Both the position numbers and the translations under genes were made by a program. The notes beneath the pieces were generated by a model. That model was not told the DNA's origin. It made no database searches and worked only from the letters and a program-made list of their open reading frames with translations. A stretch of DNA of 64,000 nucleotides from the NCBI GenBank assembly GCA_032718475.1, contig JAUCBJ010009143.1, forward strand, positions 1-64,000, given 5' to 3'. Position 1 is the stretch's first letter. Each line of letters begins with the position of its first letter. This DNA comes from Nemertoderma westbladi (Eukaryota; Animalia; Xenacoelomorpha). Of the stretch, positions 1,835-63,998 are shown in pieces.

Positions 1835-2929
1835 TCATCGGCTAGCTCCTGGGTCTCTCGGGCTCGCTCCCTTCTCCAGATACACCAGTCTACCCCCTGT
1901 AGACTCTGTTGACGGCGTCCTTGAGGCGTCACTTCCCGGAACCGGCGACGACATTCCCTGGTCACCGACTATCTCCTGACTGGTGCTCCTCCCTCGGCCT
2001 CGTCCCATTTGCCGTGTCCCTGTGGGCGCCTCCGCCAACTCCTTTTCTTCAACCGTCGAATAGAACTGCTCGTCCTTGGCTTGACTCTTGCCAAGGACTC
2101 CTCCTTCTGGTACTTGCCGCGAGCTGTGAGCTCCGGCTGTTGTCGCTGTGGGCGCGGCGGTCCTGATCCTCCACTCGTTCAGAGGTCAATGACCCCAAAC
2201 GAGTCTCCTTAGGCCGCCAATTGTGCGCTGGGTAATAAATCTAGACGTATATATCAGAGCGACGATGATATATAAAGGATTGGACAGATTCGGGCTTAAT
2301 AATACGTGCGTCGAAACTTCCCGAAATAATTTGGAGTAAATATCGTATAAACCGTGGATCGTGGGTGTGGTTAGTAGACGGATGGATGGCGCCATTTCTC
2401 GTCTGGATACTCAGGCGTGAGTTTCCTCTCCTGGTGAAGTGAAGTAAACGCAGTCCAGGGACTCGAGAGCTCCAAACCCGCGGGTTTGGTACCCGAGTCC
2501 CGCGCCGCTTCGCGCCGCGCCTCTAGATCCTTATAGGCTCGGTACAGCGAAATGGCCGCCGCCGTGTCTATGCCGTGTCGAACAGGGTTTAATCTCCGTA
2601 TACGGATCTAATGTCGTAACGGTCGGCGTAATGGGTCTCGGAGGTCGCTTTCCGCTGAAGTCGATACTGATCATCGGGTTGCTCATCGGGTAACCTCCCT
2701 CGTTATATCTAAGGAATTGGTGAGCTGGACATCGCGTTAATATCGGTTCTGGATGTTGCTCGTCTAGTCGGTCGGGAATCGTGGGTTTGTATTTCCCATT
2801 TAGCTCCATCACCGACCGCCCATGGTAGTAAACGTTCGAGTCTTTACATCCCGGTCGCGCGAATGGTAACTCCGCCTCCTCTCTGGCAGTAAATCCTCTG
2901 CGCGGTTGCGCTCTAATATCCTTCTCCAT
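1835..2929 (-). pseudogene. Internally deleted remnant of the accessory ORF2 of element A
   Basis: N-terminus MEKDIRAQPRRGF... and C-terminus ...STESTGGRLVYL match B ORF2 (57689-61396); the exonuclease and zinc-knuckle segments are missing. Confidence 0.9.
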
Positions 2930-22276: not shown

Positions 22277-24052
22277 TTAGTCTTTCTTGCGCGGACGGCG
22301 TTTACGCAGTTTCTTAAGGCTAGCAAGAGTCCTTTTCTCTTTGGGGCGAGCCACTTTACGAGGAGGGCTGTAGCTCCTAGGCGAAGGGTGCAATATAATT
22401 GCATCAGAAGGTGCAGGGTTACGATCGGTATACCCGCCGGTCGAAGTACCTGGTTGATTAATATCAACCTCAGTGGAGTGAGATCTAACGGCCTTTAGAG
22501 CGCGTCTCAGGACAGCAGCTCCAACGGGTCCTTGACGGGTCGTCTGGACACTAGCGGTGGGTGGACCGTGAGTAGTGAGGAACTTTCTCGGTTTAATGGT
22601 TCTCTCCAGCTCGCGTTCTCGGGTTCGATATTCATATGGTCGCCGAGATATTTCCTGTAGTTCAGGATGCGAGTTCACAAAGATGTCGCCATACTCCGGG
22701 TCCTGACGGATAAAATTGATCAGGTGATATGTGGTTATATCATTAGGGTTAACGTTTCTAAGGTATTTCCTGACAAACTTGGTGGAAATACACTCACCAA
22801 CACGCTTTATTAACTCGTAACTTGGTACGCGTGTTTTCTGTTCAATCGACGCGAATAGGTAAGGATGGAACGCGTAAACTCCCTCGTAAGCTCGTCCAGG
22901 GTAATAGCGATGTCGGGATTCGCAATGTAAATCGGCGTTCGCTTCCCAAGCTCGGATGTATCGCAGGGTGATCATCTCGTCTACGCTCTCTAAATCGCGA
23001 TTAAAGGGACAATTGTAACTTTCGTGTCCTTTAAGCTGGCAGTAGTGACATTGAGTCATAAATTGTGGGCAGACGGCAAATATATGAGAGTTATTAAGCC
23101 GGCAATAAGCACAATATATTTCCATCATCGGTTGTTCGAGGAAATAGGAACAAGGTACGCTCGAGTCTAGAGGAGTGAAGTGGTCTCTCGATGCGCATAA
23201 TCGACAACGTTTTCGGGAAACGTAGTTGGCGTGTCGATAATCGTACGCTGTGAGACGCTGTGGACCTTGATACCACTCTATGACATAATCATTGTCACTG
23301 TTCCGAGAAGTTGTAGGCTGAATCGCTTCTGATTCCAAGCACACTGGTTCATCCTCCAGTTGTATAGACGAAGTGGGTGCGTCTGTCTCAGTAAGTGGAT
23401 CCACTGTCTGTATTTCCACGACAGAATAACCTGTAGGTATTAGGGGTCTTTGTATAACAGATGAATGTGAGTTCTGTATACAAACGTCTTGAAACACGGC
23501 AAATCCAGCGCTACTCAGTTTCTCCGCAGCTGAGTCTCTAAGACTGAGCTTGGTCAGCGCGCGGTCCTTGAACTGACTATCGACGTTGCGGAACGGAGTC
23601 AGAAAGCGCCGGAAACATTCGAAACGTATGAACTTATTGTGTTCGTCTAACTTGGCGAGTTTAGTTCCAAGTATTAACGGATGAGCGCGTATGGTACGAC
23701 TGCACACATCGGCTAGCCAACCGGCAAGTGCTGCGTTTTCAAAGATCGTGTATATAGCTAAGGAAGGGCGAAGGGGAACACTCATAAAGCTATATACGGC
23801 ACCAGGCGCAGTTAATGGTCCATCAAAATATAAACGAGAGTAATGATCTCCATATACTTGCTGGTAATTTATAGGATTTCCAACTTTGAAATTCCAACCA
23901 TATTCTTGAAAGGCAAGATGTCCGATGGATGTCCGTTGTACTTTAGTAATGCCGCTGGGTGTATTGGCATACATAGTGCGAAAGAAACCTCGGCCTTCGG
24001 CCCAAGGAGCAATCAGCTGAGTATCAACGAAAGGGTATGGAATGTTCTCCAT
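22277..24052 (-). CDS. Accessory ORF2 of C, C-terminal part: end of exonuclease-like domain plus 3 zinc knuckles and a basic tail
   Basis: PFVDTQ..WA and GHLAFQEYGWNFK...YQQVYG align with B ORF2; CRLC..H, CAYC..H..C and CHYCQLKGHESYNC knuckles; WEANADLH motif. Confidence 0.8.
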   Translation of the reverse strand: MENIPYPFVDTQLIAPWAEGRGFFRTMYANTPSGITKVQRTSIGHLAFQEYGWNFKVGNPINYQQVYGDHYSRLYFDGPLTAPGAVYSFMSVPLRPSLAIYTIFENAALAGWLADVCSRTIRAHPLILGTKLAKLDEHNKFIRFECFRRFLTPFRNVDSQFKDRALTKLSLRDSAAEKLSSAGFAVFQDVCIQNSHSSVIQRPLIPTGYSVVEIQTVDPLTETDAPTSSIQLEDEPVCLESEAIQPTTSRNSDNDYVIEWYQGPQRLTAYDYRHANYVSRKRCRLCASRDHFTPLDSSVPCSYFLEQPMMEIYCAYCRLNNSHIFAVCPQFMTQCHYCQLKGHESYNCPFNRDLESVDEMITLRYIRAWEANADLHCESRHRYYPGRAYEGVYAFHPYLFASIEQKTRVPSYELIKRVGECISTKFVRKYLRNVNPNDITTYHLINFIRQDPEYGDIFVNSHPELQEISRRPYEYRTRERELERTIKPRKFLTTHGPPTASVQTTRQGPVGAAVLRRALKAVRSHSTEVDINQPGTSTGGYTDRNPAPSDAIILHPSPRSYSPPRKVARPKEKRTLASLKKLRKRRPRKKD

Positions 24053-25284
24053 GTTCCCATTGTATGCCTAATATGTTCTCCGACAGCGATGGTAGAGCAG
24101 AGGAAAAACTATTTCGCATTCTGAAATATTCAGAAATAAGATCTCAGTAGGAGGATTGTAACATTCGAGTACTATCCCCAACCGAATTTATCCCCAGTGT
24201 GATGAGGTAAACATCAGCTCAAAGATATGTTTGCCTCAGTTGTTCTACATAAGATTTATATCCCCAATCATTAAGGGAGGTGAACAACCAGATTTATGAC
24301 ACATAATGGTACCAGTTATTCACAAACTATCCGCTTGTCCTTTCAGTCCTTGTTTCACGGTTGTGGACTTGAGGAAATTAGGAAGTGGTTGATTATCTAA
24401 TCAAGAACGAGAGGGTGGAAGTTGATATCATAAATATCAACAGAATATGACATGGACAAGAGGTGCGGACACCAATATTAGCATCCAGATGAACAGTAAG
24501 GGCTGGGAGGTTTAGTATTCGTTTCCCGAAGCTCCGAGCGCGTTGGGAAGAGAAGGTGAGGAGATTTATTAGGATGAGGTATGATCCATACCACGATACC
24601 ACTATGATTGGTCGATCGATGAAGGGAGTAAAGAGGAGGAAGGATATAGGGTAGTATCCATAAGACACCACAATGGACAAGTTTTCCATCACGTCATCAT
24701 TCATTCTTGTCTTTTAATTGTGACACTGATCACAATAATTACAGGAAAACGATGAAGGAAGAGAAAGTTACAGCCTCCCGAAGGAGACCGCCCGCGAGCA
24801 CCCGTGCCCCGGGGAAAACTATTCACATTATGGACCCTGGACATTAACCCATGTCTCTTCTCCAGTGGTTCTCCTTTATTTGTCCGCATCAACCTTCTTC
24901 CACGTTCTATCCTTCGAGTTAATTTCGAATAGGGTTCTCGTGTTCTATTCTCGATTTATCGTTTCGACTCCGCTGGGCATGATATTTAAATAAAACCATT
25001 TCCCTTTCGGTGTCTACATCGTCCGTATCGTGTAAATCAATAGGATGACCAGTGGTCAAGAAGTCCATATACGTACCATTACGATGAGTGTAGCGAGCAG
25101 TGAACTTTCTATAATCCAATTCACGCGTAAGTTGCTCCTGGGACATTGGCGGTTCGATATAACGACCATCGTCCTCCGTAGTAGTTGGATCAGCGTCGCC
25201 GCGTATCAAGCTATCGACAAACGCTTGTAAAGGTAGAGTATATCTCTCCCTGATACCAAGATCATCTTCTATTAATTCAGTCAT
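24053..25284 (-). pseudogene. Probable disrupted N-terminal part of C ORF2
   Basis: ATG-initiated ORF 24919-25284 followed by broken frames; position matches the B ORF2 N-terminus and there is weak similarity (VRTSCPCH vs ILTRCPAH). Confidence 0.45.
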
Positions 25285-38945: not shown

Positions 38946-39448
38946 AGTTAGAGAGAGAGAGTAAGAGGTAAAAGGGGTAAAAATAGGATATAGATATTAG
39001 ATAGCAGTAAGTAGAGTTAGTAGCGAGAGGGGGGCATATGAGTGCAGCTGGATAAATCGTGTGGCCACACGACGCATACTGCTGTACTGCATAGGCCCAC
39101 TGAGTAGGCCAGAATATGGATCAGAGAGAGAATAGAATAAACCCATAGGCAGCAGTAAGTACTAGGACAGTAGAATCAAAGCAAAATAGATAAATAAATA
39201 GAATAGGGCTAAAAAATCGAAAATAGTGGTAACACAAAGAAAGTCGTTCTAGAACATAATAAAAGTAACGGACGGAAATTGTAAATTAGGCTGATTTACT
39301 AGCTCCGAAATTAATTAGGTTAAATTAAGCTTGAAAGGCGCAGTTAAGTAGAAAAGTAGGCCATTATCGAACTGTAGGAAACATCTCAATACATCACTCA
39401 TCTGTATTGCGCCTTGGTAAGGCACCACCCTACAGGTGAGCGAGTGTA

Positions 39449-41992
39449 GTGTTCGGAATGGCGAGTAAGCTGATCAGGAAGAGAAAGGCGGAGTCGGGAG
39501 GAAAAGAAATATTGGTGGATTTCACCGAAAGACACCCGGAGGAGAAGACGAGAGGATACTACGAGAGGTTGGAAAGGGGTCACGCGGCACGAGCGCTGCA
39601 GGATCACTTCCGGGAGGCGCACGAACAGCGGTTGGTCGGGACCTACGGGACGCCGTCGCTGGACAACGCGATCTTCCAACACTTCCACTACGTGGTGAAA
39701 GGAGACGAGGCGAAGTTCGGGATTCCGAAGTATCCGAGGGAATCGCCGAGGAAGGACTGGAAAAGATTCATAGAGTCCGTCAACAGAGGAGGATATATGA
39801 TCCTAGATGACGAGGGAACCGTGGAAGACGAAGCGGGTTCGAGACGAGGAACGGCAGGGTCGGCCAGGACCATACTCTTGCATTTGGCAGCACCAAATGG
39901 GGACATCTTCTTATTCGACCTAGGGACGTATGGGAAGAAGGACGGGCCGAAATTAGACCGACTGCCGAAAGCGGTACAGGTTTTAGTAAGAGAGAAGTCG
40001 ACGACGAAAGTGGGATCGGCGATTCGCGAGGACGCGGAGAGGATCATCGGTCCGGACGCCACCAACCTCCTGGATATGCAGAAAGTCTTTACGGCTATGA
40101 CGGCACCGGATGGATTGGGGGTGGTCGAGAACTCAGGCCAATGCGGGGCGGTGGCGATGGGCCAATTATTGGGGCTCGTATGCCACAAACCAATGGATTG
40201 GGGGAAGTTTAGGGAGGAATACGGAGCAGAACTAGCGAACTCGCTGAAGTGGGGAGCGAGACCGGGAAAGCAGGAGGTATATCAGTTTCGCAGAGGAGCG
40301 ATAAAGGTATATCAGAAGCGATATATCCTGCAGGAGGACTGGATGATGATAAGTTTACTTAACTTATTCATGACCGTAGTTATTGAAAGAGAACCAGGGG
40401 CATTTCTGTTATCGGGATCACCCCTAAGCTACAGGAGAGCCTTTAAAGTGGCCTTTGACGGTCTGGTAGACCACCCGGGGCTGAAGGGCGAGTCGGTGTA
40501 CTACAATAGCCGACATCTGGTAGATGGGGAGACAGACACACCGTATCAGAGATGGGAGCAGCTAGAGATGGATAGACGGGAAGCAAAGCGACTGGAAGAA
40601 GTCGCTAGACGGGAGAGGATAGAAGCAGAGGAGAGGGAGGAGGAGGCCAGGACACAGAGTTATGGCTTCGAGGAACAGGCGGGCCTAGACGAACTTCATT
40701 GAACTTCGTCGGGGAGTTCGGGGGAGTCTCTAGGGCGAGAATTGGGATGGACGGTGGGATCGCCGAAACAGTCGACGTCGGGGTTGCACGCGATGCCCAT
40801 ACCAGCGGGCGCCGAGGGCGACCAACCGCCGAGGAAGTTAAGGGAGCTAGAGGGATGGAGAGCTACGGGCGAGAGCCAAGGCGGGAAGGGACATAGTGGA
40901 TCCACCGAGATACCGGGATTGGAGACACTACCGGAAGAGGAGGACGACGACGACGAGTTCGGAGAGATACCGCCCATCGAGAGGATAGGCCACTCGGACA
41001 CGGACTGGGTTGGCGGGAGGGTGGTGACGGCCAGTGGGGCGAGGGCCTTCTGGAACAGATCCGGCAAGCGGACCTGGGTGCACGAGGGGCCGGCGATGGA
41101 TTTCGCGGGGAGCACTATCAGGTTGGGCGAGCAACCGGGGACGGCACCACGGATAGTATTCAGGGAGACAATGCCCGAGAGGGGCGGAGAGATCGACGTA
41201 AACAGGGAGAGCAACGTGGAGAAGTTTGCCTACCAGCGACTCCATAGACCGCGGAGATCGCTTGGGACAAAGGACGAGGTGGGACGCGAGACATTGGTAC
41301 TCGGCTGCGACTACTGTGGGAGACAGACCCATCGGGAAAGCAGCTGCCTATACCGGTTCCAACGGGGAACCTTTTGTCTCTATTGTGGAGAACCAAGTCA
41401 CAGGATGGGGGCGTGTCCACGGTTGCATAACCGATGTCCAAAGTGCCACTTTCGGGGACACTACGGGCGGGAGTGCGACTGGATGAGCGACGAGGAGAAG
41501 TTCACGAGGTTCGAGGAGTGGGCCGACGTCGGGGCCATGACGCGCCAGCGCATGAAGGCCCAAGAGTTCAAGTGGGGTTTCTTCCTCATAAACCAGGAGA
41601 CCCACATGGAAATCATAAAGCGAAGGTTACCGTTTACCTATCAAGAGGTAGCTACGGCGGCATCGTTCGCCGGAGTTATGAACACGCAACGGTACCTGGA
41701 CAGGTGGACACCAGAGAACCGGAGGGAGTTTAGGGATTTCTTGGCGGAACACGTGCCAAAGGCAATGAAGATGATTCTATGGGACGCCACACGAGGGAAA
41801 CAACCAGGCCATTCTGAGGGGCCACCGGCGAAGCGGTATCGGGCTTTAATAACACCAGCGCCCAAAGAGCCGACGACCGGGATCAGCAAGGAAGTGGCAG
41901 CGAAGGTCCGGAAGCAGAAAGCGGATGATGCCAGAGGAGCAGTGATAACCAAGAAACGGGCCAGGGAAGAGGACGTGAGGAGGAACAGATAA
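39449..41992 (+). CDS. Accessory ORF2 of D: DEDD-like 3'-5' exonuclease plus 3 CCHC knuckles; single in-frame TGA at 40700-40702
   Basis: ILDDEG (ExoI), LPKAVQVLVREKSTTKVGSAIREDA (ExoII), LLDMQ, YILQED (ExoIII-like); CDYC/CLYC/CPKC knuckles; both ORF halves share one frame. Confidence 0.82.
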
Positions 41993-42693: not shown

Positions 42694-43234
42694 TGTTAGC
42701 TTATTCAATCCCGCCAACACCCCATAAAGTTGTAAGCCGATAAGCAATATTGGGAGCCGCGAGATTGGGCAATTAACCAACTCGCGCCATCCCAATAAGA
42801 GTGGGAAGGAAGCACACAATAGAGGGTCAGGGGCCAAACCCCTAACCCAGAGAGAACACAGTGGAGTGAACGGGAATACTCCACGGGGCGCCAACAAGGG
42901 TATTAACCAATCAGAGGGGGGAATGGTATCGATTGAGTAGCAATTAGGCCAACCGTGCAGTATAGCCACTTGGCAGTAATATTACCTATTCAGTTATCAC
43001 AGTGCAGCAGTGCTAGCGTAGGGTACAGCCAATTAGTTTAGTTAGGGGATCACGGGACTTTAGTTACCGTATCCCGCCTTGTACACATTCACTATATATC
43101 TATATCTTATAACCTCCTATTATACACCGAACTTCAGAACTCAGTCACTTTATTTCATCCTTATACACGGCGGGGACGCGTGGACTAAATTACCACAACC
43201 GGATAAATCGGGATCCCTCTTGGATCCCGTCACA
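42694..43234 (+). repeat. 3' LTR of D
   Basis: Preceded by the PPT and followed by the TSD. Confidence 0.98.
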
Positions 43235-46200
43235 TTCCGGGGCAATGTCTCCATTGGTCCATCGTCGTGCGACTAAGTATGATGGCTACCCTGTTGGTAA
43301 CGAAGACGCTGAACTGACAGACTTCATTGGTTATATACTCTAACACGAGTAAAGCGTCGGTCCAATAGACAGTTTTCTCTAATGTATAGTCAATCTGTTC
43401 GGTTACATTCCGGCCGATGGCTGTAGCGTATAGAGCCGCCTTTAACTCCGCTCGAGGAACTTTCAACTTGTTGTTGATTAATGCCTTAGAAGTAACCAAG
43501 GCGACTTTGATTCCATCCGGAGTTTCCACTCTTAGGTAGGCTACTATACCGATTCCCATATCGCTGGCGTCTCCAAACACATGGAGTTGATAGGAATACG
43601 TAGGGAGAACATGACCAAAATATGAACGGGAAATTATAAAATCCTCGATGGCTGGCAGAGAATCTTCCCATTTCATCCACTGCTTCAGTAATTCCCCCTT
43701 AAGTGGATCGTCCCATGAGTGGTTTTCAAGCCACATTTGTTGTACCAAACTACGAGCAATCAATATAACTGGGCTAATAAATCCCAATGGATCGAAATAA
43801 GTGCTCAGTATACTTAAGCAAATCCGTTTGGTTCGAACTGGATTATCTCGCTGTTTTAGCTGGAAAAACAGGATATCTCGCTCTGTGTCCCATTTCAAGC
43901 CGAGTGTCTTGGTTTCTGGCAGATCATCTTTGATCAAATCGAGATCTTTCGCCCCTCGATCTTCCGCAGGGATCGACTCCAGAAACTCACGGGAGTTGCT
44001 GGTGAATTTGGTTAATCGAAATCCACCTCTTTTTAAGCACTCTACCGTTCCCTTAGCGACCTCAATGGCTTCCTCAACTGATGGGAGGGACTTCAGATTG
44101 TCGTCCATGTATATGTCTCTCTTGATGTTGTCGATCACTTCCTTAGAGAATGCCTCTCGGTTGTCCTCTGCAGTAGTACGCACTACCGAACAGGCGTTGG
44201 AAGGGCTTGAGATTATCCCAAAGGCCTGGATGGTCATCCAGTACTCCACCGGTTTCTGGTTGAGGTCTCCTTCGGGCCACCATAGAAATCGTAAGCTATC
44301 TCGATCCCTATCTAACACCTTGACTTGTAAGAACATGCCTTCTATATCGGAGGCGAAAGCAATCGAATATTGTCTCAATCTTAAAAGAATTCCCAACAAA
44401 GATTGAAGCAAGTTGGGTCCGGGTAACAATTCAGAGTTAAGGGATTGACCCATGTAAAGAGCGGAGCCATCAAACACTACTCTCACTTCATTTGGTTTAC
44501 CGGGTTTAGGAACGTAATGGTGAGTTAAATAATACGTTCTTTCAGTCACAGGTGTTTCTTCCGGTACCCTCTCCGCGTATCCCTTACTAATAAATTTTTC
44601 CAGCTGTGTTTGATACATTGCTTTAGCTGAAGAATTAGCTGTAAGGCGTCGATGGAGTTGCGCGATTCTTTTTTCCGCCAGGGGTCTGTTATTTATGAAC
44701 TTCGGTTCTCTCTTGCGAAAAGGTAAACCGACTTCATACCTACCTTGATCTTTGATGAAACGTGTAGTCGTCTCTTGGATCTGCTTGGCCCTTTCCTCTT
44801 CCACCGACAAGGCTTTATCGTAGGAATTGGGCTCTACCGCCTCTTGCGTAAAGAATCGTACAGCATGTTCATCTCGAGTCTTGGCATTGCAACGTTCAAT
44901 GACGTCATTTAATTCGTCGTTATAAGCTTCTCATTCAGAGGGATAGAGAAGTTGACATAAGTTAACTTGGTTTTGCCAAGCCTCGTTTTCCTTAAGGAGA
45001 TCGATGGTATTCTCCTCATCAAAAAGCTGGTGAACGTCGTCGTTATCTGAGGAGTATGGAATTCCCTCAGTTGAATCGTCTCCTTCACTAGTATCATCTT
45101 CCCATTCACTCACCTGGCAGACTCTCTCTTGCGGTAGTCTTTCTCTGAGTGTTCTACGGGAAGGGCCAGTAAAGTACCAACCTACTCTAGTTCTTACCGC
45201 ATAGGTCTGTAGGGGCTGCGGTTGAGCAGGCCGTTTCTCTAATGTCTCCAGCGCCTCATGCGCGTTTTGGCCAATGAGTATTTGCACTCCAGGATAATCA
45301 GTCTGGAATCGAGGTATGTAAAGATGTTGGATGCTCTTATCCTCGTCCCAATTATAAAGGTCTGCTTGAGTAGTAGCGAAGTTCTTTATAGCCACCATTT
45401 TCACTGACCTTATGCTGTTTTCTCCTAGTTCGTCCTGGGGGGTGGACAACGCTCCTACATAATAATCAGCTGTTATTGTAGATTTCCAAACTTGCATAAT
45501 GCCTGACATGTTGAGCTTAGTTTGGAACTTGGGTTGTCCAGCAAATATATCTTCGGCTAACTCTTTATCGATGAATGTTCCTGTGCTGCCGGAGTCCAGG
45601 AGGGCGTTCACTACATAACTCCTCTTAGGTCCGTGAACCCTTACTTGCACCACAGGAAACTCTCGGATCCCTACATTGGAAGATGGTTCTTTCCAAGATG
45701 GTTGTCGTTCAGAAGTAGTTAGAGTAAAGTCGTTATCTGGATCCTTTTCATATGTGAGTGCTCGATACACTGCGGTATTTATCATGTAACAGGATTCGTT
45801 TTCGTCGGAGAACTCGTCTGTATAGAATCCTTCCATCTCAGATTGATCAGTGTCGTTCACATCACTGAATTGGACATGTAGCTCGGAATCACTTACCTGA
45901 TTCGGACTATTTCGATCGAATTCAGCGTGCAACAAGATATGATGTTTCGCACCACACTTTGCACACCTTATGTCAGAGAAACAGGTTCGCCGTTGGTGTC
46001 CTTGTCTGAGGCAATTATAACATAACCGCTTATCCCACATGACTTCGCGTCTCTCTGTTAATGATTTCTTTAGAAATTCATCACACCTATTCAAATGGTG
46101 GGTCCCGTCGCACAGTGCACATTTCGGTTTGATGTTACTTACCTTATTTTGAGTCACATTGTGTACACTTGCCTTTTCTTCGGGCTTTCTCACCTGAATT

Positions 46201-51290: not shown

Positions 51291-51647
51291 CTGTACAATC
51301 TGATCAGGTTTACACGCCTTCTGTTCAATACTGGCCTACAAATAAATAAAACTTGACAGAAATAAGTAAACCATATAAAGGAATAAGGGGTGATCAATCC
51401 CTAATCCCTTAAACAGCCTACCGGTATACAACAATCAAATCGAATAATACTAATGTACTTATACGGAAGTACCGGTTAGGACAGCTAGGCCTACGGACCT
51501 ACAGAAGTACCGGTTCTGGCAGTTGGACCTACGGACCTACGGCAGTACCGGTTCTGGCAGTTGGGCCTACTGACCTACAGATGTACCGGTTCAGGTTTAC
51601 CGGTTGACCGGTACTTTCAACTTTATTGCTTACTGCAACAAAGAAGC

Positions 51648-51659
51648 TATATCCTTTAA
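51648..51659 (-). other. Non-tRNA primer-binding position of C (sense TTAAAGGATATA), complementary to own LTR 52410-52421 / 21746-21757
   Basis: The + strand tatatcctttaa abuts the LTR and ttaaaggatata lies inside both LTRs; no TGG. Confidence 0.78.
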
Positions 51660-52862
51660 TGTTCGCGCTTTCAGACCTTTGGCAGTTTAACCCGCCAAAT
51701 TAAGATGTCTTCTAGATATTAAATCGCTTTTTAGCCTATGACAAGTATTTGATTCACTACACTAGTCGAAACCAATCTGTGCGCGACCATTCACCCGCTG
51801 GATATTCCCGGGAGATTGGGTTCGACGGTTTAATTTTATTGCTATGTAAGCCTAATGTATTATTCGACTGACAGTATTATATAATCTCTGACAATATTAT
51901 TCACCTTCGGGAATATTAACAGTTCCTTTAGGACGTGGCGCTTTATTTATATAAACAGAGTTATGACTTAAACTACTCACAACGATATGGCTTAATTATA
52001 ATTCACATATATGGCGCATTCTTTAGGAAATGCTTCTTTAACAGACTCACTCATACACAATGCTGCACAATACTGCACACTAATCTGCCAATCTTCACTG
52101 ATTTTAGTCACATATAAAAGGAACACAGACTGACTCATGTAGGGTCTATCAAATAACATTAGATTCACTTCAAACCACTTTAACATAAGTCACAATCGTT
52201 ATTGGTAACTTTTCTCTCTTACCTTCGGTATATCAAGAATATTGGGTGTCGGGGTTATTTCTCGTTATTCCAATATAATAATTCATCAACAAATATAATG
52301 AATAACCGACAACAAATAGCAGTATACGGTATTGATTGAGCAGGTAATTTTAGCAGCAGTTATTCAAGTGATTAAAAGCCAGTTTGCTTGAGTTAAGACA
52401 ATCAGTCAGTTAAAGGATATATGTCCTTATAATTAAACCTACTAGTGTTGAGCTAAAAAGCAGAAAGCACAAAACACTAAAAAGCCGTTCTTTCGTGGCT
52501 TTGAAAAACTCGTGACTACTGCTCTATACGAGGATACCAACTCCCTTATTCCACGAAGCTCCCGTTCAACACAGAGAAAGAGCAGTGAGATAGGAAAATT
52601 TCAGTTCAGTAGCTCTGTGATAGGTCAAAATCAAGGCTAACTCAAATTCTATTGGGAGATACAAAAACAAGGCTATGACGCAACCTCCCTAGGCTTGTTG
52701 GCCGATTAAACAGAGCCCAGATGCCTGCGTACAGCAAATCAGCCAATAAGCTGGTAACTTGCACTATTTTTAGCTATAGATCCCTTTTGAGAGTATTCTA
52801 GCGACTGGGGGGGAACTGGCCAACAAGGCAAACGAATCAGTTATCCCACAAAAGCTTTTACA
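51660..52862 (-). repeat. 5' LTR of element C
   Basis: Direct repeat of 20996-22198, followed by the TSD GTTTA. Confidence 0.97.
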
Positions 52863-53950
52863 GTTTATGAACGTATTTCGCATATAAGTTATTTTTTTAT
52901 TGATTGACTTTACCAGTGATTGGGTAAGCCAGGGTTTATGAGGCACCAGTTTTTTTGGAATTTTTTTGTGTGGGGCATGTTTTTGACATACTGCATCTAA
53001 ATTTGAATAAAATATATCAAAGCGATCTCTCAACTGATTATTCGCGTTATTATAGGTCCACGTGTCAATGTCTGACAAATCAGCTAAAAATGTTGTATGA
53101 TCAAAATTTGAATAATCATAAAAAAAGTTCGTAGTATCAGGCCTGAAATAATTAGAATAATCTGTTAAGATCACGAATGTCGGTAAGTGATCGGCAATTT
53201 CTGTTAGGAAAACACCCTCATTAGATATCGATGTATTAATATTGGTTATGACATGGTCAAGCAAAGATGGTGGAGAACTTTTAATGCGAGTTGGCTTTGT
53301 AATGACCTGCTTAAAACCGTTTGAGTTTATGGTTTGAAGGTAATTAAGAGTTAAATTACAAGGTTTTTTTAAATTGATGTTCATGTCACCTGTAATGATC
53401 ACGTCATAGCCTTTATCAGCTAGCAAGGATAGTAAGTTATCCAAATCATCGATAAAATTATTACGGTCAACTGTTTGGGAAACATACATACATCCTATTA
53501 TTAGAGGTTTATTTGGATGGGGACGTTTTACTTCGATCCAGCAATTCTCAGGTCCCGATATTCGTAAATCAGTACGTTCAATAAAATCGAACTCATCTCG
53601 AATGATAATTGCAGTGCCGCCTCGTTTTGTGTCCCGCCTATCCTGTGAGACCAACTCATAACCTGGAAAAGTAATTTCTGAGGGGTCCGAAGAAGTGCTC
53701 AAAAAGGTTTCAGAAAATGTCAACACATCGAAATCACTCGACAAAGTTTGGAAAAAATTTGATATTTCACACTTGTGTGTTGGTAGGCTTTGGCTATTGA
53801 CATGAAAAACCGAGAACGACTTAGAGTTCTCTAAGTTACCGAATTCTTTATTAAAAGTATCAGCTGTGTGATAACCCCGAGAAATATTGTTATTATCTAA
53901 ATTTATGTCAGGATCAATATCATTGAATGGAGATGATAAACAACCGCGAC
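52863..53950 (-). mobile_element. Same LINE, 5' half of ORF2 (APE endonuclease)
   Basis: SETFL, RGGTAI, TGDMNIN, PTR, LDHV, DHLP and PWLT motifs; the sequence joins 20995 seamlessly once element C and one GTTTA are removed. Confidence 0.92.
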
Positions 53951-53970
53951 CTCTATACTAACAGCAGAAC

Positions 53971-56089
53971 TGTTGAACAGACAAATACCCGTATACTCCT
54001 CTGCCAACCTAATAAGTTCTCGTCTAACCAATAAGACACAAAGACTGCTCTACTGTTAAGTAAAGGGGATCAGGAGCGTGCTATTACTAAATTGTAGGGC
54101 TGCTAAATACAAAACCGCTACTTACCGTTGGATGGCGCTAATCTGCCGTCCGCTAATATATTTTACTAAATTTACACGGCTCCTGCAAAATCGCTTGTTC
54201 CTTTCTCTACCGATCGCTCGACAGAGAGCTAACTGTTCGAATCTATGAGCCACGCGGGAATAACCAAAACAATAAACCCGAGTCGGCTCCCTAAGCTTAC
54301 TTAAGACGAGTGCGAGAGGCTTTGCACTCAGAGTATTCTTACGCCTAATTTTACTATTTAAATACGATAATGCCTACGTCTTTTCTAATCGCGAATACTG
54401 GGGGTTCCCTAAAGGAATGTGTGAATGCGAGAATATTTAAAATAATCAAAATGGTACAGTATTTGTCTCTACTTGGGTAATACCGCTCTGGGTCTAAACT
54501 TGCCTGCAGCTGGCTTTAGGCCAGCAAATTACTAGTGTGTTGTGCGTACTGAATAATGCGATCTAGCTTATTGCCCGCTAATGCAAATAACCGCTCATCG
54601 TGAATAGTTTACAGTACTCTAATTATTACCTTAGCTACTCTCCGCTATGCTGCGTACTAATTCTTAATTTCACTAACTAATTACAGTCACAAATATGTAA
54701 CGGCGTACTAATTACTAAGAGTTCCAGAATGCGCAATTCTAATTTATTACACACTAGGTTTCGCTAGTAATAGCCTAAAATACCGTATTACTTTGACCTA
54801 ATCAGTAATTAATTGTTGTAAACTAAGAAATAGAAATCAATCAAAGGGAAAAGGCGCCTACCTAAGCATTCGTAATCATAGGCACACTTCAGTAACGCAC
54901 CAATCAGCGTCAGCAATCACAGCTCGCAATTATGCAGTTCACTACCGTGTAGCCCACAGTTGTGCACTTCACTCTTCGTACTCCACACTTCACACTGTAA
55001 TACGTGCAGGCCTCTCCCGGGTACATCTAGGCTTCCTAACTAACCCGATTCTTGCCCCCCTAATACTAAAATAGAGACAAAACCTGGATCATCAGCCCCT
55101 TAATTACTGTACCGGCGAATGGTCTGCATGCTACAGTGTGAACCGCCCGACCGCAACGGTGACCCCCCGCCAGCGTTGCCCGCCTTTGAATCCTCCGCTC
55201 TCCCTTAGTCGCCCAACCCCCTGATGCGCCCACCGCCTACCGGCACCTTAGCCCTCCATTTATTGAATAGCTACCGTAGCGGCGCATGCAAATCACAAAA
55301 GTCTGACAGTCCTTGAAAATCCCTTAGGATTATTGCGTAGAATTGAATCACATAGAACCATTTACAAAAGGGGTAGAAATCATAGTTCCGGTTGTAATTA
55401 GCAGTAATCGATAGGATTGATTGAGAAACGCAATTGAGAATAGTAGCACTGACAAATCATTTCAAGAAATTAATCGAAAGATAGAAAATAGCAGAAAATA
55501 CGCAAAATTATACTTCTAACTTAATGGTACTAAATATGTCTGAGTTGGTGTGTAAGGGTGATTGAGGTACAGCTCTACCGGCAAGCCGCCAATTTATAGG
55601 TGATCCGAGAAGGGTGATGCAATAAGGGTGATGCAATCGCTCTCCCATTGGCTCTCCAGTCCGCGCTAGCATTAGACCAACCTGGAAGCAGTTAGTCCAA
55701 TAAGGAAGCCGGATTGTGAACCTCAGGGCTTCCAAGCCGCGAATTATTACCATATATGGTAATGGATCATGTCCCTGGCTGCTGAATGGTTAGGATTGCG
55801 TCCCTAGATGCCGGCCCTATCGAAGCTAATAACAGCAAGCACAAAAATCCAGGGTCCAACTGAACTTGCTACCCTGGAACTATCTACTTATCTACTACTA
55901 CTAATATAGGGCGTTTCAATTTCCTTATCTAAATATCACCTCGCTATTATGTCTTACCTAAAATATTATACTGCATAACGGGCTAATATTGCGTACAGTA
56001 TAACGGACTAATATATTATACTGCATAATGAACCAACATATTATACTGTACAATGGCTAATAATGTGTACAGCGCCATATACAGTAACA
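53971..56089 (-). repeat. Complete A/B-family LTR (~2.1 kb)
   Basis: Collinear with 12684-14798; TGTT...AACA ends; no matching TSD and no PPT next to it. Confidence 0.85.
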
Positions 56090-56430: not shown

Positions 56431-57211
56431 AGTTCCGGTTGTAATTAGCAGTAATCGACAGGATTAATTGAGAAACGCAATCAAGAATAATCGCACTAGC
56501 AAATCATGTAGAGAAATTAATCAAAATAGAAAATTGCAGAAATACGCTAAATTATACTTCTAACTGCAGGGTGGGGAATAAGGATTGGGTAAGGTATAAG
56601 GTAAGGTTAAGGAATGGTACAGCTCTACCGGCAAACCGCCAATTTATAGGTGATCCGAGTGGGGTGATGCAATAGGGTGACTCAATCGCTCTCTTATTGG
56701 CTCTCCAGTCCGCGCTAGCATTAGACCAACCTGGAAGCAGTTAGTCCAATAAGGAGGCCGGATTGTAGCCCTATCGCTCTCCAACCCTTCAAATTATTAC
56801 CATATATGGTAATGGATCATGTCCCTGGCTGCGGAATGGTCAGGATAGCGTCCCTATATGCTAGCCCTATTGAAGCTAATAACAGCAAGCACAAAATCCA
56901 GGGTCCGACTGAACTTGCTACCCTGGAACTATCTACCTATATCCTAATACAAAATTACGTAGGTAGGGCTACATACTTATACAAAATGGAATATGTTATA
57001 TTATTATAATATTATATACAAAATATGTGGGCGTTTTGATTTCCCTATCTAAATATCACCTCGCTATTATGCCTTATCTAAAATATTATACTGCACAACG
57101 GACTAATATTGCGTACAGTATAACGGACTAATATTGCGTACAGTATAACGGACTAATATATTATACTGCATAATGGCTAATAATGTGGATACAGCGCCAT
57201 ATACCGTAACA
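56431..57211 (-). repeat. Truncated 3' LTR of element B
   Basis: Homologous to 55384-56089 and 174-963; followed by the same ccgctccaaggg PPT-side sequence as A. Confidence 0.88.
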
Positions 57212-57688: not shown

Positions 57689-60600
57689 TTATCGACCCGC
57701 TCCTGGGTTCTTCGGGCTCGCTACCCTCTTTCGTCCTCTTCCCAGATACACCAGTCTACCTCCTGTAGACTCTGTTGACGGCGTCCGTGAGGCGTCACTC
57801 CCCGGAACCGGCGACGATGTACCCTGAGCCCCGACAGATTCCCGGCTCGTGCTTCTCCCTCGGCCTCGTCCCAATTGTCGTGCTCCCGTGGTCGCTTCCG
57901 CCAACTCTTCCTTATGCAGTTGCACTCGCGCCTTTTCTGACGCTCCCTGCGCCTTGCGCTGCAACCGTTGTGCTTCTATAATTGAGTGATAGTGGTCGTC
58001 CTTGACTTGACGCTTGTCTCGGACCTCTCCTCCTGGTTCTTTCCGCGAGCCTTGAGCTCCAGCGGTCATCACTGTGGTCGCTGCGATTCTCTGCTCTTGT
58101 ATCCTCTCAGCGGTCAATGACCCCACTGGTACATGAGTCAACAAGAATTCGTTGCGGTATTGAATAGCCGCCATCCTCCAATCACCTCGCGCGCGTACCA
58201 CTTTTCTAGTCTCCGAAAATACACCCTTCGTGATTCGATCGCAAATAGCAACGAAGTTCCAAGTGTATTTGTTATCCATATTCAACTGTCTGAAGTATTC
58301 TCGAACTACGATAACTCCAGTGTTTTGTGGAAGGTCTTGAGCAGTTAGGATGAGTTCCTGATATTGTGGTAGCGACTGTAGATATGGCTCGTACGCAACA
58401 TGTGATGGGTCTACCGCCCAAAATCCATATCCCGCCTTGAATGGTAACCAACGCATCTGCGCTTGAATATGGTAGTCAGCCACACTCTCCCACTTATCTA
58501 ACATCTCTCGAAGTAGGTTAGCGCTATGGTTTTGGAAGGAATCATCTCGCAGCTGACATCTCGCGCTACGATGTCCCTTTACTCCACAATATCCACATTG
58601 AGAAATGAAGACGGTGCACGTGTGAAACGAATGGTCGGTCTCATTACACCAACGACAGACCTTATGCGCCGCCTCTACTACCGCGTCGCACGACTTTAGA
58701 TTGTGCCTTGTGCTGCCGCACAACTTGCACCTACGCGCTTGTGGAAACCAGGCCCTCTCGTATATGAGGTCTCCAATCGGTTTCGCACTTCCTTCTTTCC
58801 CAATGTCTAATACGATGTCGTCCTCTCCGGTCAGCGGTTGTCGATCCGGAACAAAGTAAACATCCTCGTCCTTGTCCTCTATCTCCAATATTTCCTCCCG
58901 CGTTCGTTTCGGATATGTCTTCTCCACCGGAAGATCTACTCCGAACACCTCTACTAACGTCTCCGGCCAGCCCTCCTTAACAGGTCTATCAGCCTCCGAG
59001 TGGAAGGGAGTACCAAACCCGCGGGTTTGATTCCCGAACCACTTCTCCAAAGCTTCTGGTGTCGGATATTCCATCGACGGTCGGTCTCCCAAATCTCCGA
59101 TGTTCTGTCGATATACTCCTTCGAATATCGATAATCCTCTCCTAACCATCGACGTATTCTCTAACGATTGGTTGAAGAACGGTGTTAAGAAACGCTTCAT
59201 CACGTCGGATTGGATTCCCCCTTTCGAGCGAACGTATTGATCTCCTCCGAATACCAATGGATGACGCTTCAAAACTCGCGCAACGATATCCGCTAATAAA
59301 CAAGTCACCGTGTTCGACTCAAGCACCAAATAATATTGTAGCGACGCACGGGGTGGCGCGCAAATGTTCCAATACACTAACGCTTGCCGCTTGAAGTGGG
59401 ATTTGAACTCCGCTCCCGGTGGCGTGTTGTATTCGCCATACGCCTCCTCGTACTTCTTCTGCGTCTTTAACTTAAAGTCCCAATTATACAACAAGTGTGC
59501 TATAAAGCCCATACCAGTCTTGGCAGAGTTGGGATACTCCCTATAAATTCCAATATCCTGTGCCCATAGCAACAATAGCTTGGTGTCGACAAACGGTCTC
59601 GGCAATCTATCTTCCAGATCAGTCATGGCGTTGAAGTCGCTCTCCAAATCGCTCTGGACTCCCGATCCCACCTTGACGTAATCTTGGTTGAGAATAGCCT
59701 CTCTAACCTTCTTGGGTAGCATCCTGGCGTTGATACGCTCCGCTCCGTGCATACCTCCTCGCCTGCATACCTCCAAAATCTGCTCCCTAGGATCCTTCCC
59801 TTTCCGATATTGTGTCGTTATGATGGGCTCCGGTCTCTCTCGATCCGCCCTCACGCGCATAAACACATGAGTCACACCATCGGCCGCACGAATTTGAATG
59901 CACTTGCTAGTCAAACATTCCTGATGGGACCCTCCTTCGTTGTCGTAGAACATCACCCGCCAATCTTGCAGTGATTCCTCCGTTTTTCTCCACTGACGCT
60001 GAATCTCATCTGATGGGGTCCACATGCGCTCAATAGCCTTGTGGTCATCATATCGGGTATAAGAACCCTTCCTCCTCAGCCACGTCTGGTCTACCTCCTC
60101 ATCGTCTGGGAATGTAGCCACCGCGACCCATACCTTGATGTACTTATCCAACCATCCAAATAATTTGCTCTCCTTCCCCGGAGCTCCAATCTTATCCAAT
60201 GTGTCGTAATCTGTGATCTGCATTGGGACATCACGCAAGAACTTCGCGCATAAAACTTCCCGTAAACAGTCAACGTTCCAATGATCCGCCATTCTTACCA
60301 TCGGCAAGAATCGTATCGCTTCTCGCGACTCCGGATGATCTACTAATATCGCAGGTTCGGTGCCGTCGGAATAATACACCGGTCGGGGTTGAGATACGAC
60401 CTGTGGAACAAATCCGGTCACTCTCCTCGTCTCCTCTTGATGCCTATCCGCGGCCTTATTATACTCCGCTATCCTATTCTCAAATAACTCTTTCGCCTTC
60501 GCCACTCGCTCCTCCTGCCGCAACGCGTCTATGTCGTCCTGATGCTCAGGCGTGAGGCTTCTCACTTGGTGAGGCGAAGTAAACGTAGTCCAGGGACTCG

Positions 60601-61396
60601 AGAGCTCCAAACCCGCGGGTTTGGTACCTGAGTCCCGTGCCGCTTCGCGCCGCGCCTCTAGATCCTTATAGGCTCGGTACAGCGAAATGGCCGCTGCCGT
60701 CTCTATCAAACTGGGTGTCGAACAGGGTTTAATCTCCGTATACGGATCTAATGTCGTAATGGTCGGCATAATGGGTCTCGGAGGTCGCTTTCCGCTGAAG
60801 TCGATACTGATCATCGGGTTGCTCATCGGATAACCTCCCTCGTTGTATCTAAGGAACTGGTGAGCTGGACATCGCGTTAATATCGGTTCTGGATGTTGCT
60901 CGTCTAGTCGGTCGGGAATCGCCACGTCTTGCTTATTCATGCATTCACCACACTTGTAGAACAGCTTGTACACGCTGAAGACCTTCGGCGTCTCCTGATC
61001 CTCGCCTCGAGTCCTCCGGTACAAATGCATTCCGTCGAACTGATCTCGGACTGCAGGTAGAGGTTCTTTGTGTCGTAAATACATATTCATATGGTACAGT
61101 CGTGCGATCTCCTCATCCGGGTCTGCACTAATGTCACATACGTCCAAAGCGAAGTCGTAAGGATACCGAGTGCGATATTCTTTCCGCAAAACTTCCATCC
61201 GGTCTCCCAACACTCTCATTCTTTCCCTCCGTAATTCCTTATCATACATAGGTTTGTATTTCCCGTTCAGCTCCATCACGGACCGCCCATGGTAGTAAAC
61301 GTTAGAGTCCTTACATCCTGGTCGCGCGAATGGTAGCTCCGCCTCCTCTCTGGCAGTAAATCCTCTGCGCGGTTGTGCTCTAATATCCTTCTCCAT
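57689..61396 (-). CDS. Intact 1235-aa accessory ORF2 of B: DEDD-like 3'-5' exonuclease plus 3 CCHC zinc knuckles
   Basis: FYDNEG (ExoI), LPKKVREAILNQDYVKVGSGVQSDL (ExoII), FVDTK, YLVLE; CKLCGSTRHNLKSC, CRWCNETDHSFHTC and CGYCGVKGHRSARC; no signal peptide or TM segment evident. Confidence 0.85.
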   Translation of the reverse strand: MEKDIRAQPRRGFTAREEAELPFARPGCKDSNVYYHGRSVMELNGKYKPMYDKELRRERMRVLGDRMEVLRKEYRTRYPYDFALDVCDISADPDEEIARLYHMNMYLRHKEPLPAVRDQFDGMHLYRRTRGEDQETPKVFSVYKLFYKCGECMNKQDVAIPDRLDEQHPEPILTRCPAHQFLRYNEGGYPMSNPMISIDFSGKRPPRPIMPTITTLDPYTEIKPCSTPSLIETAAAISLYRAYKDLEARREAARDSGTKPAGLELSSPWTTFTSPHQVRSLTPEHQDDIDALRQEERVAKAKELFENRIAEYNKAADRHQEETRRVTGFVPQVVSQPRPVYYSDGTEPAILVDHPESREAIRFLPMVRMADHWNVDCLREVLCAKFLRDVPMQITDYDTLDKIGAPGKESKLFGWLDKYIKVWVAVATFPDDEEVDQTWLRRKGSYTRYDDHKAIERMWTPSDEIQRQWRKTEESLQDWRVMFYDNEGGSHQECLTSKCIQIRAADGVTHVFMRVRADRERPEPIITTQYRKGKDPREQILEVCRRGGMHGAERINARMLPKKVREAILNQDYVKVGSGVQSDLESDFNAMTDLEDRLPRPFVDTKLLLLWAQDIGIYREYPNSAKTGMGFIAHLLYNWDFKLKTQKKYEEAYGEYNTPPGAEFKSHFKRQALVYWNICAPPRASLQYYLVLESNTVTCLLADIVARVLKRHPLVFGGDQYVRSKGGIQSDVMKRFLTPFFNQSLENTSMVRRGLSIFEGVYRQNIGDLGDRPSMEYPTPEALEKWFGNQTRGFGTPFHSEADRPVKEGWPETLVEVFGVDLPVEKTYPKRTREEILEIEDKDEDVYFVPDRQPLTGEDDIVLDIGKEGSAKPIGDLIYERAWFPQARRCKLCGSTRHNLKSCDAVVEAAHKVCRWCNETDHSFHTCTVFISQCGYCGVKGHRSARCQLRDDSFQNHSANLLREMLDKWESVADYHIQAQMRWLPFKAGYGFWAVDPSHVAYEPYLQSLPQYQELILTAQDLPQNTGVIVVREYFRQLNMDNKYTWNFVAICDRITKGVFSETRKVVRARGDWRMAAIQYRNEFLLTHVPVGSLTAERIQEQRIAATTVMTAGAQGSRKEPGGEVRDKRQVKDDHYHSIIEAQRLQRKAQGASEKARVQLHKEELAEATTGARQLGRGRGRSTSRESVGAQGTSSPVPGSDASRTPSTESTGGRLVYLGRGRKRVASPKNPGAGR

Positions 61397-62156: not shown

Positions 62157-63998
62157 CTAATTCTGTTTTGAGGCAGGAGACAAATTATAATCTCCCATCT
62201 CGATACGTGTCTCCTCTAATAACACAATATCTTGGACCGGTCGGTCCAAGGTGTGTAAACCATTAGTTTTACACTTTTTTGGGTGCGGACACTTGCACCT
62301 AATTTTCACAGTGACTGTGCGCACTATGTTTTGCACGTCTGGGTGTGTATGCAAGATCACACCTGTCTCCCAATACTTTCTCTTGACAATCGGCTCGGTT
62401 ATCAGTACGTAGTCTCCTCTTTGGAGACTCCGAACCGTTTTGTACCACTTTGTTCTGGTAGATATGGTGGGAAGATCGTATTCCCGCCAATATTCCCAGA
62501 ATGTGTACGCCACAAATTGAGTCATTTTCCAGCTTTTACGACTATATAGGTCGGCACTAACGGGTTCTGATGCCGGCACAAGAAATGCTGGACTCTGCAT
62601 TAGCAAATGATTCGGCGTTAATGCAACACCGTCTGGCAACATAGCTATCGGCCTCGAGTTTAGTGTATGCTCGATTTCAATGAAAGCTGTGACCAGTTCG
62701 TCGTCGGTAAGTTGTTTGTTCACAGGCAATGTTTTGGCAATGGCCTGCTTTACAGAGCGAACTAAACGCTCCCAACTTCCTCCTCTCCAAGGACTTTCTG
62801 GAGTATTAAATCTCCATTCTACTCGTTGCGGCAAAAGTGCTGCAGAAATTTCTTTATTCTGTGCCGCTTTATGAGCCGCGTTCAACTCGCAATTCCCTCC
62901 GACAAAGTTTGTACCCTTATCGGAGTAGAACGCCTTTACTAGTCCTCCCCTGGCCATAAATCTCTTCAAGGCCAGGAGCAGAGATTTGGCCGACATGTCT
63001 GCCACACGCTCAATGTGTATGGCTCTACTAGCCATGCATGTCAGTAGCAGGCCCCATCGCTTGTGGGTCAGCCGTCCACTCTTTGCCTCAATCGGACCAA
63101 AACAATCCACCCCTGTGTTCGTAAAGGGTGGGTCATATGCCTGCACTCTCGCTTCCGGGAGTTCAGCCATCTCCTGTTCCAATACTCTGGCGTTCACTCT
63201 CTTGCAAACCAGACAGGCGTCATACATAGTGCCGACTGCCCTGCTTGGCTGCAATAGAATGAATCGCTGTCTCGCTGCCGACAAACAGTGTAACCTTCCC
63301 TCGTGATGCAACCTCTTGTGTATATCCCATAGAATCGCTCTTTGCAATTCTATTGGGTGACTAGGGATTATCACTGGGAACCTAAACTGTGAGTTTATGT
63401 CGACAGTCTGGATTCTCGATCTATGACAAATTAAACCCTTATGGATTAATGGACTCCATTTTCTAAGGGGTTTATAGAGAACTGGTCGTTGAGCCGATAA
63501 TAGATGGAATTCTTTAGGGAAGGCACACATTTGATAATGCTTCAAATGCTTTAATTCCGCTTGATCAATCTCATCCTCTGTCAGAGGTTGTTTCAATTTC
63601 TGAATTCGCTCACTATTGGTGCTCAATGGTTCTCTCAAATGTTTCGAATGTTTTAAACAAAGGTACAAAATGTATCGGCTTAACCACGCAGTTCTTTTAC
63701 AAATTGTCAGCCAAGAGGCAGACGAATTTAGTAATTTGTCATAAACACTACATGGTTCTAATGCCAGCGACGGTTGTCCGCTAATTAATGGAAGTTTCGA
63801 ATCCAAACCCGCAGGTTTGGGAACCAAAGGATCCATTGTGTCGGTCATTTTTTGTCCGTCACTTACCAACTGTGACTCTGGTTTAGTCTGTAAGGGTGGT
63901 TTTACGTCATAACTTACCCTTCCGGACCTAGTAGTCACGTAAGTCTGTTGGTCTGACAGGTCTCCGGGCCGCTCCAATGACTCTTCAGGCCGCTCCAA
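62157..63998 (-). CDS. Integrase-containing C-terminus of B Pol (partial)
   Basis: HHCC-like zinc motif, GVDCFGP, SDKGTNF and WERL; nearly the same protein as the end of A Pol. Confidence 0.95.
   Translation of the reverse strand: MERPEESLERPGDLSDQQTYVTTRSGRVSYDVKPPLQTKPESQLVSDGQKMTDTMDPLVPKPAGLDSKLPLISGQPSLALEPCSVYDKLLNSSASWLTICKRTAWLSRYILYLCLKHSKHLREPLSTNSERIQKLKQPLTEDEIDQAELKHLKHYQMCAFPKEFHLLSAQRPVLYKPLRKWSPLIHKGLICHRSRIQTVDINSQFRFPVIIPSHPIELQRAILWDIHKRLHHEGRLHCLSAARQRFILLQPSRAVGTMYDACLVCKRVNARVLEQEMAELPEARVQAYDPPFTNTGVDCFGPIEAKSGRLTHKRWGLLLTCMASRAIHIERVADMSAKSLLLALKRFMARGGLVKAFYSDKGTNFVGGNCELNAAHKAAQNKEISAALLPQRVEWRFNTPESPWRGGSWERLVRSVKQAIAKTLPVNKQLTDDELVTAFIEIEHTLNSRPIAMLPDGVALTPNHLLMQSPAFLVPASEPVSADLYSRKSWKMTQFVAYTFWEYWREYDLPTISTRTKWYKTVRSLQRGDYVLITEPIVKRKYWETGVILHTHPDVQNIVRTVTVKIRCKCPHPKKCKTNGLHTLDRPVQDIVLLEETRIEMGDYNLSPASKQN

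Follow-up and report, generated by a model that had tools for sequence, protein, structure and literature searches.

A predicted DEDDy exonuclease and CCHC-knuckle accessory gene in the env position of BEL/Pao retrotransposons

A 64,000-nucleotide (nt) stretch of the genome of Nemertoderma westbladi (Xenacoelomorpha; GenBank assembly GCA_032718475.1, contig JAUCBJ010009143.1, positions 1 to 64,000 of the forward strand; hereafter referred to as the window) holds four BEL/Pao long terminal repeat (LTR) retrotransposons, designated A, B, C and D. Element B carries, in the position of an env gene, an intact open reading frame (ORF2). Here we report that ORF2 is real and represents a family of accessory genes, not described before, in a broad BEL/Pao lineage; the family is inherited vertically with pol and is under purifying selection. 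Its product is likely an RNA-binding accessory protein that is predicted from its sequence to act as a 3′–5′ exoribonuclease in most lineages.

The 1235-residue open frame of B lies on the minus strand, and an earlier note on the window had correctly described it as intact, in the sense of the element and in the env position; the ExoI DxE and LP...KVG....D ExoII motifs of B and D, and the three knuckles and WESVAD motif of B, were likewise recovered (Table 1). From its N terminus, the B protein comprises a region of about 450 residues, a DEDDy-type exonuclease, a variable linker (about 130 residues between the nuclease and the knuckles in B), three CCHC knuckles with a helical tail, and a basic, disordered C terminus. 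Hydropathy revealed no membrane segment (top 19-residue values of 1.34, 1.30 and 1.19 in B, D and C, respectively), and no signal-like stretch is present in the N termini of B and D, which are hydrophilic; ORF2 is not an envelope protein. For the N-terminal 470 residues, linker and tail of B, no relative was found among the metagenome loci described below or in Pfam. Within this N-terminal region, at about residues 151 to 179 (the 60950-60850 region, minus strand), a CxxC...CxxH pattern noticed by eye may be an extra metal site.

Table 1. Positions of ORF2 and associated features in the window.
Feature	Position	Strand	Description
B ORF2, intact, 1235 aa	57689..61396	-	ATG at 61396, stop at 57689; sense of B; starts 760 nt past the pol stop
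Predicted DnaQ-like exonuclease domain, ~aa 458-758	59123..60025	-	Fold match of model residues 9-309; family profile versus EXD2
ExoI, FYDNEGG (D485, E487)	59930..59950	-	Motif alignment
ExoII, KVGSGVQSD (D583), within LPKK..KVGSGVQSD	59648..59674	-	Motif alignment
FVDTK and KTGMGF motifs	59504..59593	-	Counterparts, in the family-profile alignment, of the RNA-contact stretches DLQ and RSGMGY of trypanosome RNase D
ExoIII, Y689-x3-E693	59318..59335	-	Glu instead of the usual Asp
Three tandem CX2CX4HX4C knuckles, aa 890-903, 914-927, 934-947	58556..58729	-	Sequence motif
Helical tail, (F/W)E..A..G..T..R...(W/Y)GF...Y; WESVAD in B	58343..58555	-	Conserved, directly after the knuckles
B pol, 3′ part (integrase region)	62157..63998	-	Runs off the window; A's pol carries Peptidase_A17 and DUF5641
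B 3′ LTR	56431..57211	-	Approximate limits; self-BLAST versus A's LTR
D ORF2	39458..41992	+	Nuclease 39752-40405, knuckle module 41303-41662; Met at 39458; in-frame TGA 40700-40702 in linker
C ORF2, broken	22277..25284	-	22277-24067, second nuclease half and knuckle module; 120-codon frame starts at 25284
A ORF2 remnant	1838..2929	-	N- and C-terminal flanks only; nuclease and knuckles deleted; gag-pol 3745-11241 open
Element D	LTRs 28947-29487 and 42694-43234	+	14,288 bp; LTRs 541 bp, identical; 5-bp target duplication
Element C	LTRs 20996-22198 and 51660-52862	-	17,574 bp without D; LTRs differ at 3/1203 positions

B alone has the complete nuclease-knuckle architecture; a stop interrupts it in D, only part of it remains in C, and A has none of it. 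The earlier note had extended it to all four elements, which does not hold: A lacks both parts, C lacks ExoI and ExoII (found in no frame upstream), D contains a stop, and only B is intact. For D, the proposed frame (39449-41992) does contain the nuclease and the knuckles, but its Met is at 39458 and a TGA interrupts it. The ExoI DxE and the ExoII Asp are present in B and D and deleted from C and A. The ExoIII YxxxE, previously overlooked, is found in B, C and D. B and C are 24% identical over 594 columns (E 2e-33). B and D resemble each other only weakly in pairwise comparison (E 0.01-0.09), whereas a profile built without D matches D, with X at the stop, at a probability of 99.7 and E 1.4e-26. 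With a profile from eight homologues outside the window, nuclease and knuckles are both recovered in B and D, C yields the second nuclease half and the knuckles, and A yields neither. The first deletion of A (B 60921-61251, in frame) recurs in contigs of three of four sequencing runs and is therefore a spread variant.

The eight relatives, obtained by a full HMMER protein search, all have a nuclease-like part, knuckles and a tail. Their profile matched EXD2 at E 3e-7. A deeper profile of 50 rows (A4) matched EXD2 at E 7.2e-13, Trypanosoma brucei RNase D (TbRND) at E 1.5e-5 over both nuclease and finger, and WRN at 0.02-0.04; a nuclease-only profile (A5) matched EXD2 at E 5e-11. AlphaFold, given the family alignment, returned a model with a predicted local distance difference test score (pLDDT) of 66.8 and a predicted template modelling score (pTM) of 0.53, compared with a pLDDT of only 34.5 for B alone. 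In a fold search against 48,161 chains, the titles of the best 50 rows all denote nuclease domains of DEDD/DnaQ type or RNase H-like kind (Z 13.0-8.4, model residues 9-309), including diDNase (13.0), Nibbler (12.4), WRN (11.9), RNase D (11.8), RRP6 (11.3), TbRND (11.1), and Exd1 and Egalitarian (both 10.9). No single family was prominent, the top rows lying within about 2 Z of one another. At the level of the predicted model, these data show a DnaQ-like DEDDy fold in the nuclease part, as the earlier note had anticipated. Other searches weigh against this assignment. A Pfam scan of B ORF2 gave no match, PF01612 appeared at E ≤ 0.1 in only 1 of 50 family rows, and Foldseek returned nothing at E ≤ 0.001 (best 6e-3). 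In the Atlas, PF01612 clusters scored 0.89 and a Euglenozoa cluster with PF01612 and CCHC 0.86, both first matches below 0.9 and leads only. A5 does not list RNase D at E ≤ 10; the fingers may therefore account for much of the A4 match to it. In three word-index protein searches, the only protein retrieved was the query P0002. One homologue, P0001, combines a degenerate nuclease with a tandem pair of complete knuckle-helix modules.

The knuckle-helix profile gave no match below E 0.2 in the PDB and none in Pfam, and annotation pipelines miss the module because it has no such sequence match. The resemblance to the Air1/2-ZCCHC7 knuckles suggested earlier proved unspecific: Air2 was matched at E 0.0057 with a small profile, ranked below Lin28, and at E 0.43 and 3 with deeper profiles. 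Nor was there support for the ORF2 knuckles having been copied from those of Gag in these elements, with no Gag match to the profile below E 0.3. The 111 rows of the module fall into 98 clusters at 90% identity and 41 at 50%. The module looks like an invariant core of the family; as the loci were found through a knuckle motif, this invariance is partly built in, and nuclease-only forms escape.

The probe used to find these loci, a degenerate motif from knuckles 2 and 3, matches the window once, in D (0 matches in 100 shuffles). It fits neither B nor C, and the family is therefore wider than sampled. The motif occurs in at least 120 metagenome loci, 80 of them with flanks, and had no match in viral contigs; a scan of metagenome contigs with P0005 confirmed no locus. 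The nuclease lies upstream in 61 of the 80 flanked loci, and a BEL/Pao-like pol lies upstream on the same strand in 40 of the 80, a figure that becomes 29 of 35 once the count is limited to nuclease loci where 2 kb or more is available. Among the 16 of 34 pol pieces that were scanned, all carry DUF5641 and 13 carry Peptidase_A17. ORF2 length across the family is about 600-1550 residues. We found no other home for the gene, as none of the six nuclease loci without pol shows another element class. A long ORF2 takes up L005 and L052, L012 is a decayed relative of the pol-linked L058, and L008 and L032 span about 2 kb only. L022, the last of the six, has at 5187-10931 a derivative of a BEL/Pao element, about 5.7 kb long and flanked by direct repeats, with Gag-like pieces, a DUF5641 tail and ORF2 but most of pol lost; a GIY-YIG frame adjoins it on the other strand. 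Another locus, L071, looks like a chance match. Four contigs of 10.1-10.4 kb (L033, L060, L062 and L065) overlap at their ends by 111 bp, as would fit complete elements that were assembled in circular form.

Since the reverse transcriptase (RT) of B lies outside the window, integrase was used for the comparison of trees. Over 31 elements, the ORF2 and integrase trees have 17 of 28 splits in common (random mean 0.21, maximum 2), including 12 of the 18 well-supported ones, with a patristic rho of 0.83; the vertical inheritance proposed in the earlier note is borne out with integrase in place of RT. The integrase tree unites B, C and D in one clade (99/97). The ORF2 tree leaves the place of D open and does not reject a B-C-D clade (approximately unbiased test, p-AU 0.48). 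The proposal that ORF2 evolves non-neutrally across copies was also upheld. In the ORF2 core of B-family contigs, 40 of 52 variants are listed; of these, 36 are synonymous, where 31% would be expected (p 1e-14; ratio of nonsynonymous to synonymous polymorphism, pN/pS, ~0.05), and among those listed none touches a catalytic residue and none is an indel. In the flanks, where 40 of 341 variants were shown, 18 of the 27 listed within ORF2 are synonymous. Between families, the ratio of nonsynonymous to synonymous substitution rates (dN/dS) is below 1 in 15 of 15 pairs, which are not independent of one another. It is hardly credible, given these values, that ORF2 is a neutral passenger, a captured piece of a host gene: ORF2 is broken in three of the four copies in the window, and the ORF3 genes of rotifer LTR elements were reported, in the accessible part of that study, to show no significant departure from neutrality (PMC5408684), but the pN/pS of the B core, the dN/dS values and the tree congruence contradict it. 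Very improbable, too, is a self-limiting or host-serving gene whose nuclease feeds element RNA into a host small-RNA pathway, in the manner of Mut-7/Nibbler, and so restrains copy number. Nibbler is among the top fold matches, and the idea was raised for the rotifer ORF3s, in the same accessible text that expects such elements to be out-competed (PMC5408684); moreover, ORF2 tracks the integrase tree, and the B family is multi-copy with a synonymous bias.

The family is found in three catalytic states. In an active-site count over 57 rows, with three duplicates and P0001 left out, all four acidic residues are present in 31 of the 36 complete rows outside a catalytically dead group, across deep branches. 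At ExoIII, the last position in the 40 non-dead rows is D in 32, E in 6 and N in 2, and the first is Y in 32, H in 6 and C in 2. The dead group (14 rows, picked by eye from the motifs) has the catalytic set in 0 of 13 complete rows. On the integrase tree, which is independent of that choice, it comes out as a single branch (11 rows, 99/100), with a domain homologous over its full length (probability 99.8) and an ordinary pol. Nuclease dN/dS is 0.085-0.54 in seven unsaturated of eight intact pairs and 0.22-0.48 in all seven dead pairs, and in the latter (7/7) the dN/dS of the knuckle module is usually below that of the nuclease. Finally, L047 (3341-6529) and L059 (6880-9648), which the integrase tree places as sisters, combine pol and the knuckle-helix module with a different N-terminal part in which no nuclease was detected. 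To judge from these residues and domains, catalysis is dispensable in some lineages. Retention of the knuckle module in intact, dead and nuclease-less elements, and its lower dN/dS in dead pairs, would suit an RNA adaptor that replaces an envelope and routes element RNA to germ granules or the oocyte, with catalysis incidental. Egalitarian has a role in RNA transport, and both Exd1 and Egalitarian, the latter in entries titled as bound to localisation RNAs, are among the fold matches; ORF2 also occupies the env position. We find such an adaptor, which would resemble Egalitarian or EXD1, rather doubtful, as 31 of the 36 complete non-dead rows retain the full acidic set, which points to real catalysis, and the knuckle-motif search favoured knuckle retention from the outset.

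In the role that we favour, and that we regard as about evenly balanced between right and wrong, the knuckles would bind single-stranded RNA and the DEDDy domain would trim 3′ ends, in counter-silencing or tail removal. ORF2 is set apart from pol by a gap and is probably expressed from its own subgenomic message; its product, having no membrane segment, is not an envelope protein. The architecture and shared motifs suggest that, as in trypanosome RNase D, the knuckle-helix module would hold RNA close to a 3′ end and pass it on to a two-metal D-E-D-(D/E) site. Young copies with a broken ORF2 (C with 3 LTR differences in 1203, D with identical LTRs, A with open gag-pol) indicate that ORF2 is not needed in cis, and the protein would thus act in trans. 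Small RNAs of the host are its likely targets, or else tails that have been put on the RNA of the element itself. Where catalytic residues are lost, binding alone would suffice for the role, as it does in EXD1 and Maelstrom.

Several considerations weigh against this role. The dead clade and the nuclease-less pair imply that trimming cannot be the role everywhere, the Glu at ExoIII in B, C and D may lower activity, and DEDDy folds act on DNA too. A purely trans-acting gene should decay, and strong selection would need cis preference or repeated founder bottlenecks.

An accessory function in replication is a rival reading: a packaged protein might trim the transfer RNA primer or reverse-transcription intermediates, or proofread RT and so permit a larger genome. 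Knuckles of nucleocapsids bind genomic RNA, and those of ORF2 could do likewise; WRN and proofreading domains of polymerases are among the closest folds. C and D have no TGG-type primer-binding site after the 5′ LTR (none at 29488-29520 in D or 51630-51659, minus strand, in C), and both, at 14.3 kb for D and 17.6 kb for C without D, exceed the 4.2-10 kb of Belpaoviridae genomes (PMC8742986). We nevertheless consider this function unlikely: a whole clade with an ordinary pol has no catalytic residues and is still under selection, the relatives L013 and L023 have a TGG primer site, and there are young copies without a working ORF2. Because ORF2 stays selected after catalysis is lost and pol is ordinary in all three states, a contest over host RNA control is likelier than an essential step of reverse transcription. 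Carried to its furthest form, the counter-silencing role would mean that an old, widespread BEL/Pao clade encodes a suppressor of germline RNA silencing, an EXD/Nibbler-type, knuckle-guided exonuclease that destroys or sequesters guides of the PIWI-interacting RNA (piRNA) class or removes decay tails. One branch would have repeated the move of host proteins from nuclease to dead RNA binder (EXD1, Maelstrom), and another would have kept only the new knuckle-helix module; we offer this fuller version tentatively, as a possibility that is more probably wrong than right.

The BEL/Pao elements of the window include nested ones. In A, C and D, Pfam domains DUF1759 (Gag), Peptidase_A17, integrase and DUF5641, and the order protease, RT, RNase H, integrase, identify BEL/Pao (Belpaoviridae). 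B, which is cut by the right end of the window so that its Gag and RT fall outside, was assigned through its 96% DNA identity with A across pol and the start of ORF2 (self-BLAST). The LTR regions of A and B are 84% alike, and the earlier statement that the elements have very different Gag proteins and LTRs fails for this pair, with the Gag of B beyond the window. LTRs with TG..CA ends and a target-site duplication are present in C and D. D is inserted in the pol of C, and C in turn interrupts a long interspersed nuclear element (endonuclease and RT; minus strand, 19408-21006 and 52770-53957), giving three nested layers. An in-frame TGA in C (44931-44933, minus strand), between gag-protease and RT, is either a mutation or a site of read-through. 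In D, the region between pol and ORF2 (38284-38955) is an array of 32-36-bp units rich in GTTAG/TTAGAG. Another A/B-family fragment (LTR and 5′ leader, 54024-56089) adjoins the 3′ LTR of B on its left, and between A and the interrupted element lies an array of a 63-bp unit (15415-17550), about 95% alike, with three restarts.

With known BEL/Pao elements, those of the window have in common the DUF1759 Gag, protease, RT, Peptidase_A17, integrase, DUF5641, TG..CA LTRs and 5-bp duplications. They differ in the size of C and D and in the missing TGG-type primer site of both, and the third gene described for Belpaoviridae is env-like only (PMC8742986). The word exonuclease is absent from the main text, as available, of a metazoan BEL/Pao survey (PMC3118150) and from that of a Daphnia survey. 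We found no BEL/Pao exonuclease gene in the open literature, to which the search was confined (subscription journals and Repbase notes lay outside it), and a nematode BEL precedent named in the earlier note was not confirmed there.

Among cellular proteins, the EXD2, WRN exonuclease, Nibbler (Mut-7), EXD1 and Egalitarian group (PF01612-like) provides the best sequence match, to EXD2, and fold matches at Z 10.9-12.4 with 8-14% identity, and it has both active and dead members, but no knuckle module was matched in it. Compared by profile, the closest architecture appears to be that of trypanosome RNase D (PDB 7c42, 7c45) rather than Air1/2: a DEDDy nuclease precedes tandem CCHC fingers, the profile matches both parts, DxQ and (R/K)(S/T)GxG motifs are similar, and the predicted model aligns with it over 200 residues (Z 11.1, root-mean-square deviation 3.8). 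In TbRND, the fingers give RNA binding and raise 3′–5′ cleavage, and Gln164, Arg179, Ser181, Gly182 and Tyr185 touch RNA (PMC7797062). The DT(Q/R) and (K/R)TG(L/M)G stretches of the family align with these RNA-contact stretches, residue numbers being converted by our own offset. TbRND is a cellular enzyme of mitochondria. Its four fingers sit on a linker of some 28 residues, and it prefers U-tails (PMC7797062), whereas ORF2 has three knuckles, a long variable linker and a helical tail unmatched in TbRND. Regarding common descent with TbRND as opposed to another DEDDy family, EXD2 scores far higher and the nuclease-only profile does not retrieve TbRND; the common layout may be convergent.

The nearest precedent within retrotransposons is ORF3 of the bdelloid rotifer LTR elements Juno and Vesta, which we take to be Gypsy-type lineages. 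According to the accessible part of the rotifer study, ORF3 is a DEDDy 3′–5′ exonuclease gene after pol, in the env position and without membrane segments, gained patchily and with no selection seen; 3′-end processing was proposed for it, with activity unproven (PMC5408684). The same text gives a DEED motif and, by text search, neither CCHC knuckles in ORF3 nor BEL/Pao among the hosts (PMC5408684), and two reviews, in the portions available, mention nuclease capture in LTR elements for rotifers only. ORF2 is set apart from ORF3, by description, through its BEL/Pao host, D-E-D-(D/E) site, triple knuckle and tail, co-descent with integrase and purifying selection. Nuclease capture in the env position is thereby extended from rotifer elements to BEL/Pao, with the evidence of selection and co-descent that the rotifer study lacked. 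Whether the retrotransposons of animals carry counter-defences against silencing by small RNAs is still an open question. The ORF2 family, with an intact, selected gene and natural active, dead and nuclease-less versions, offers a direct test of it.

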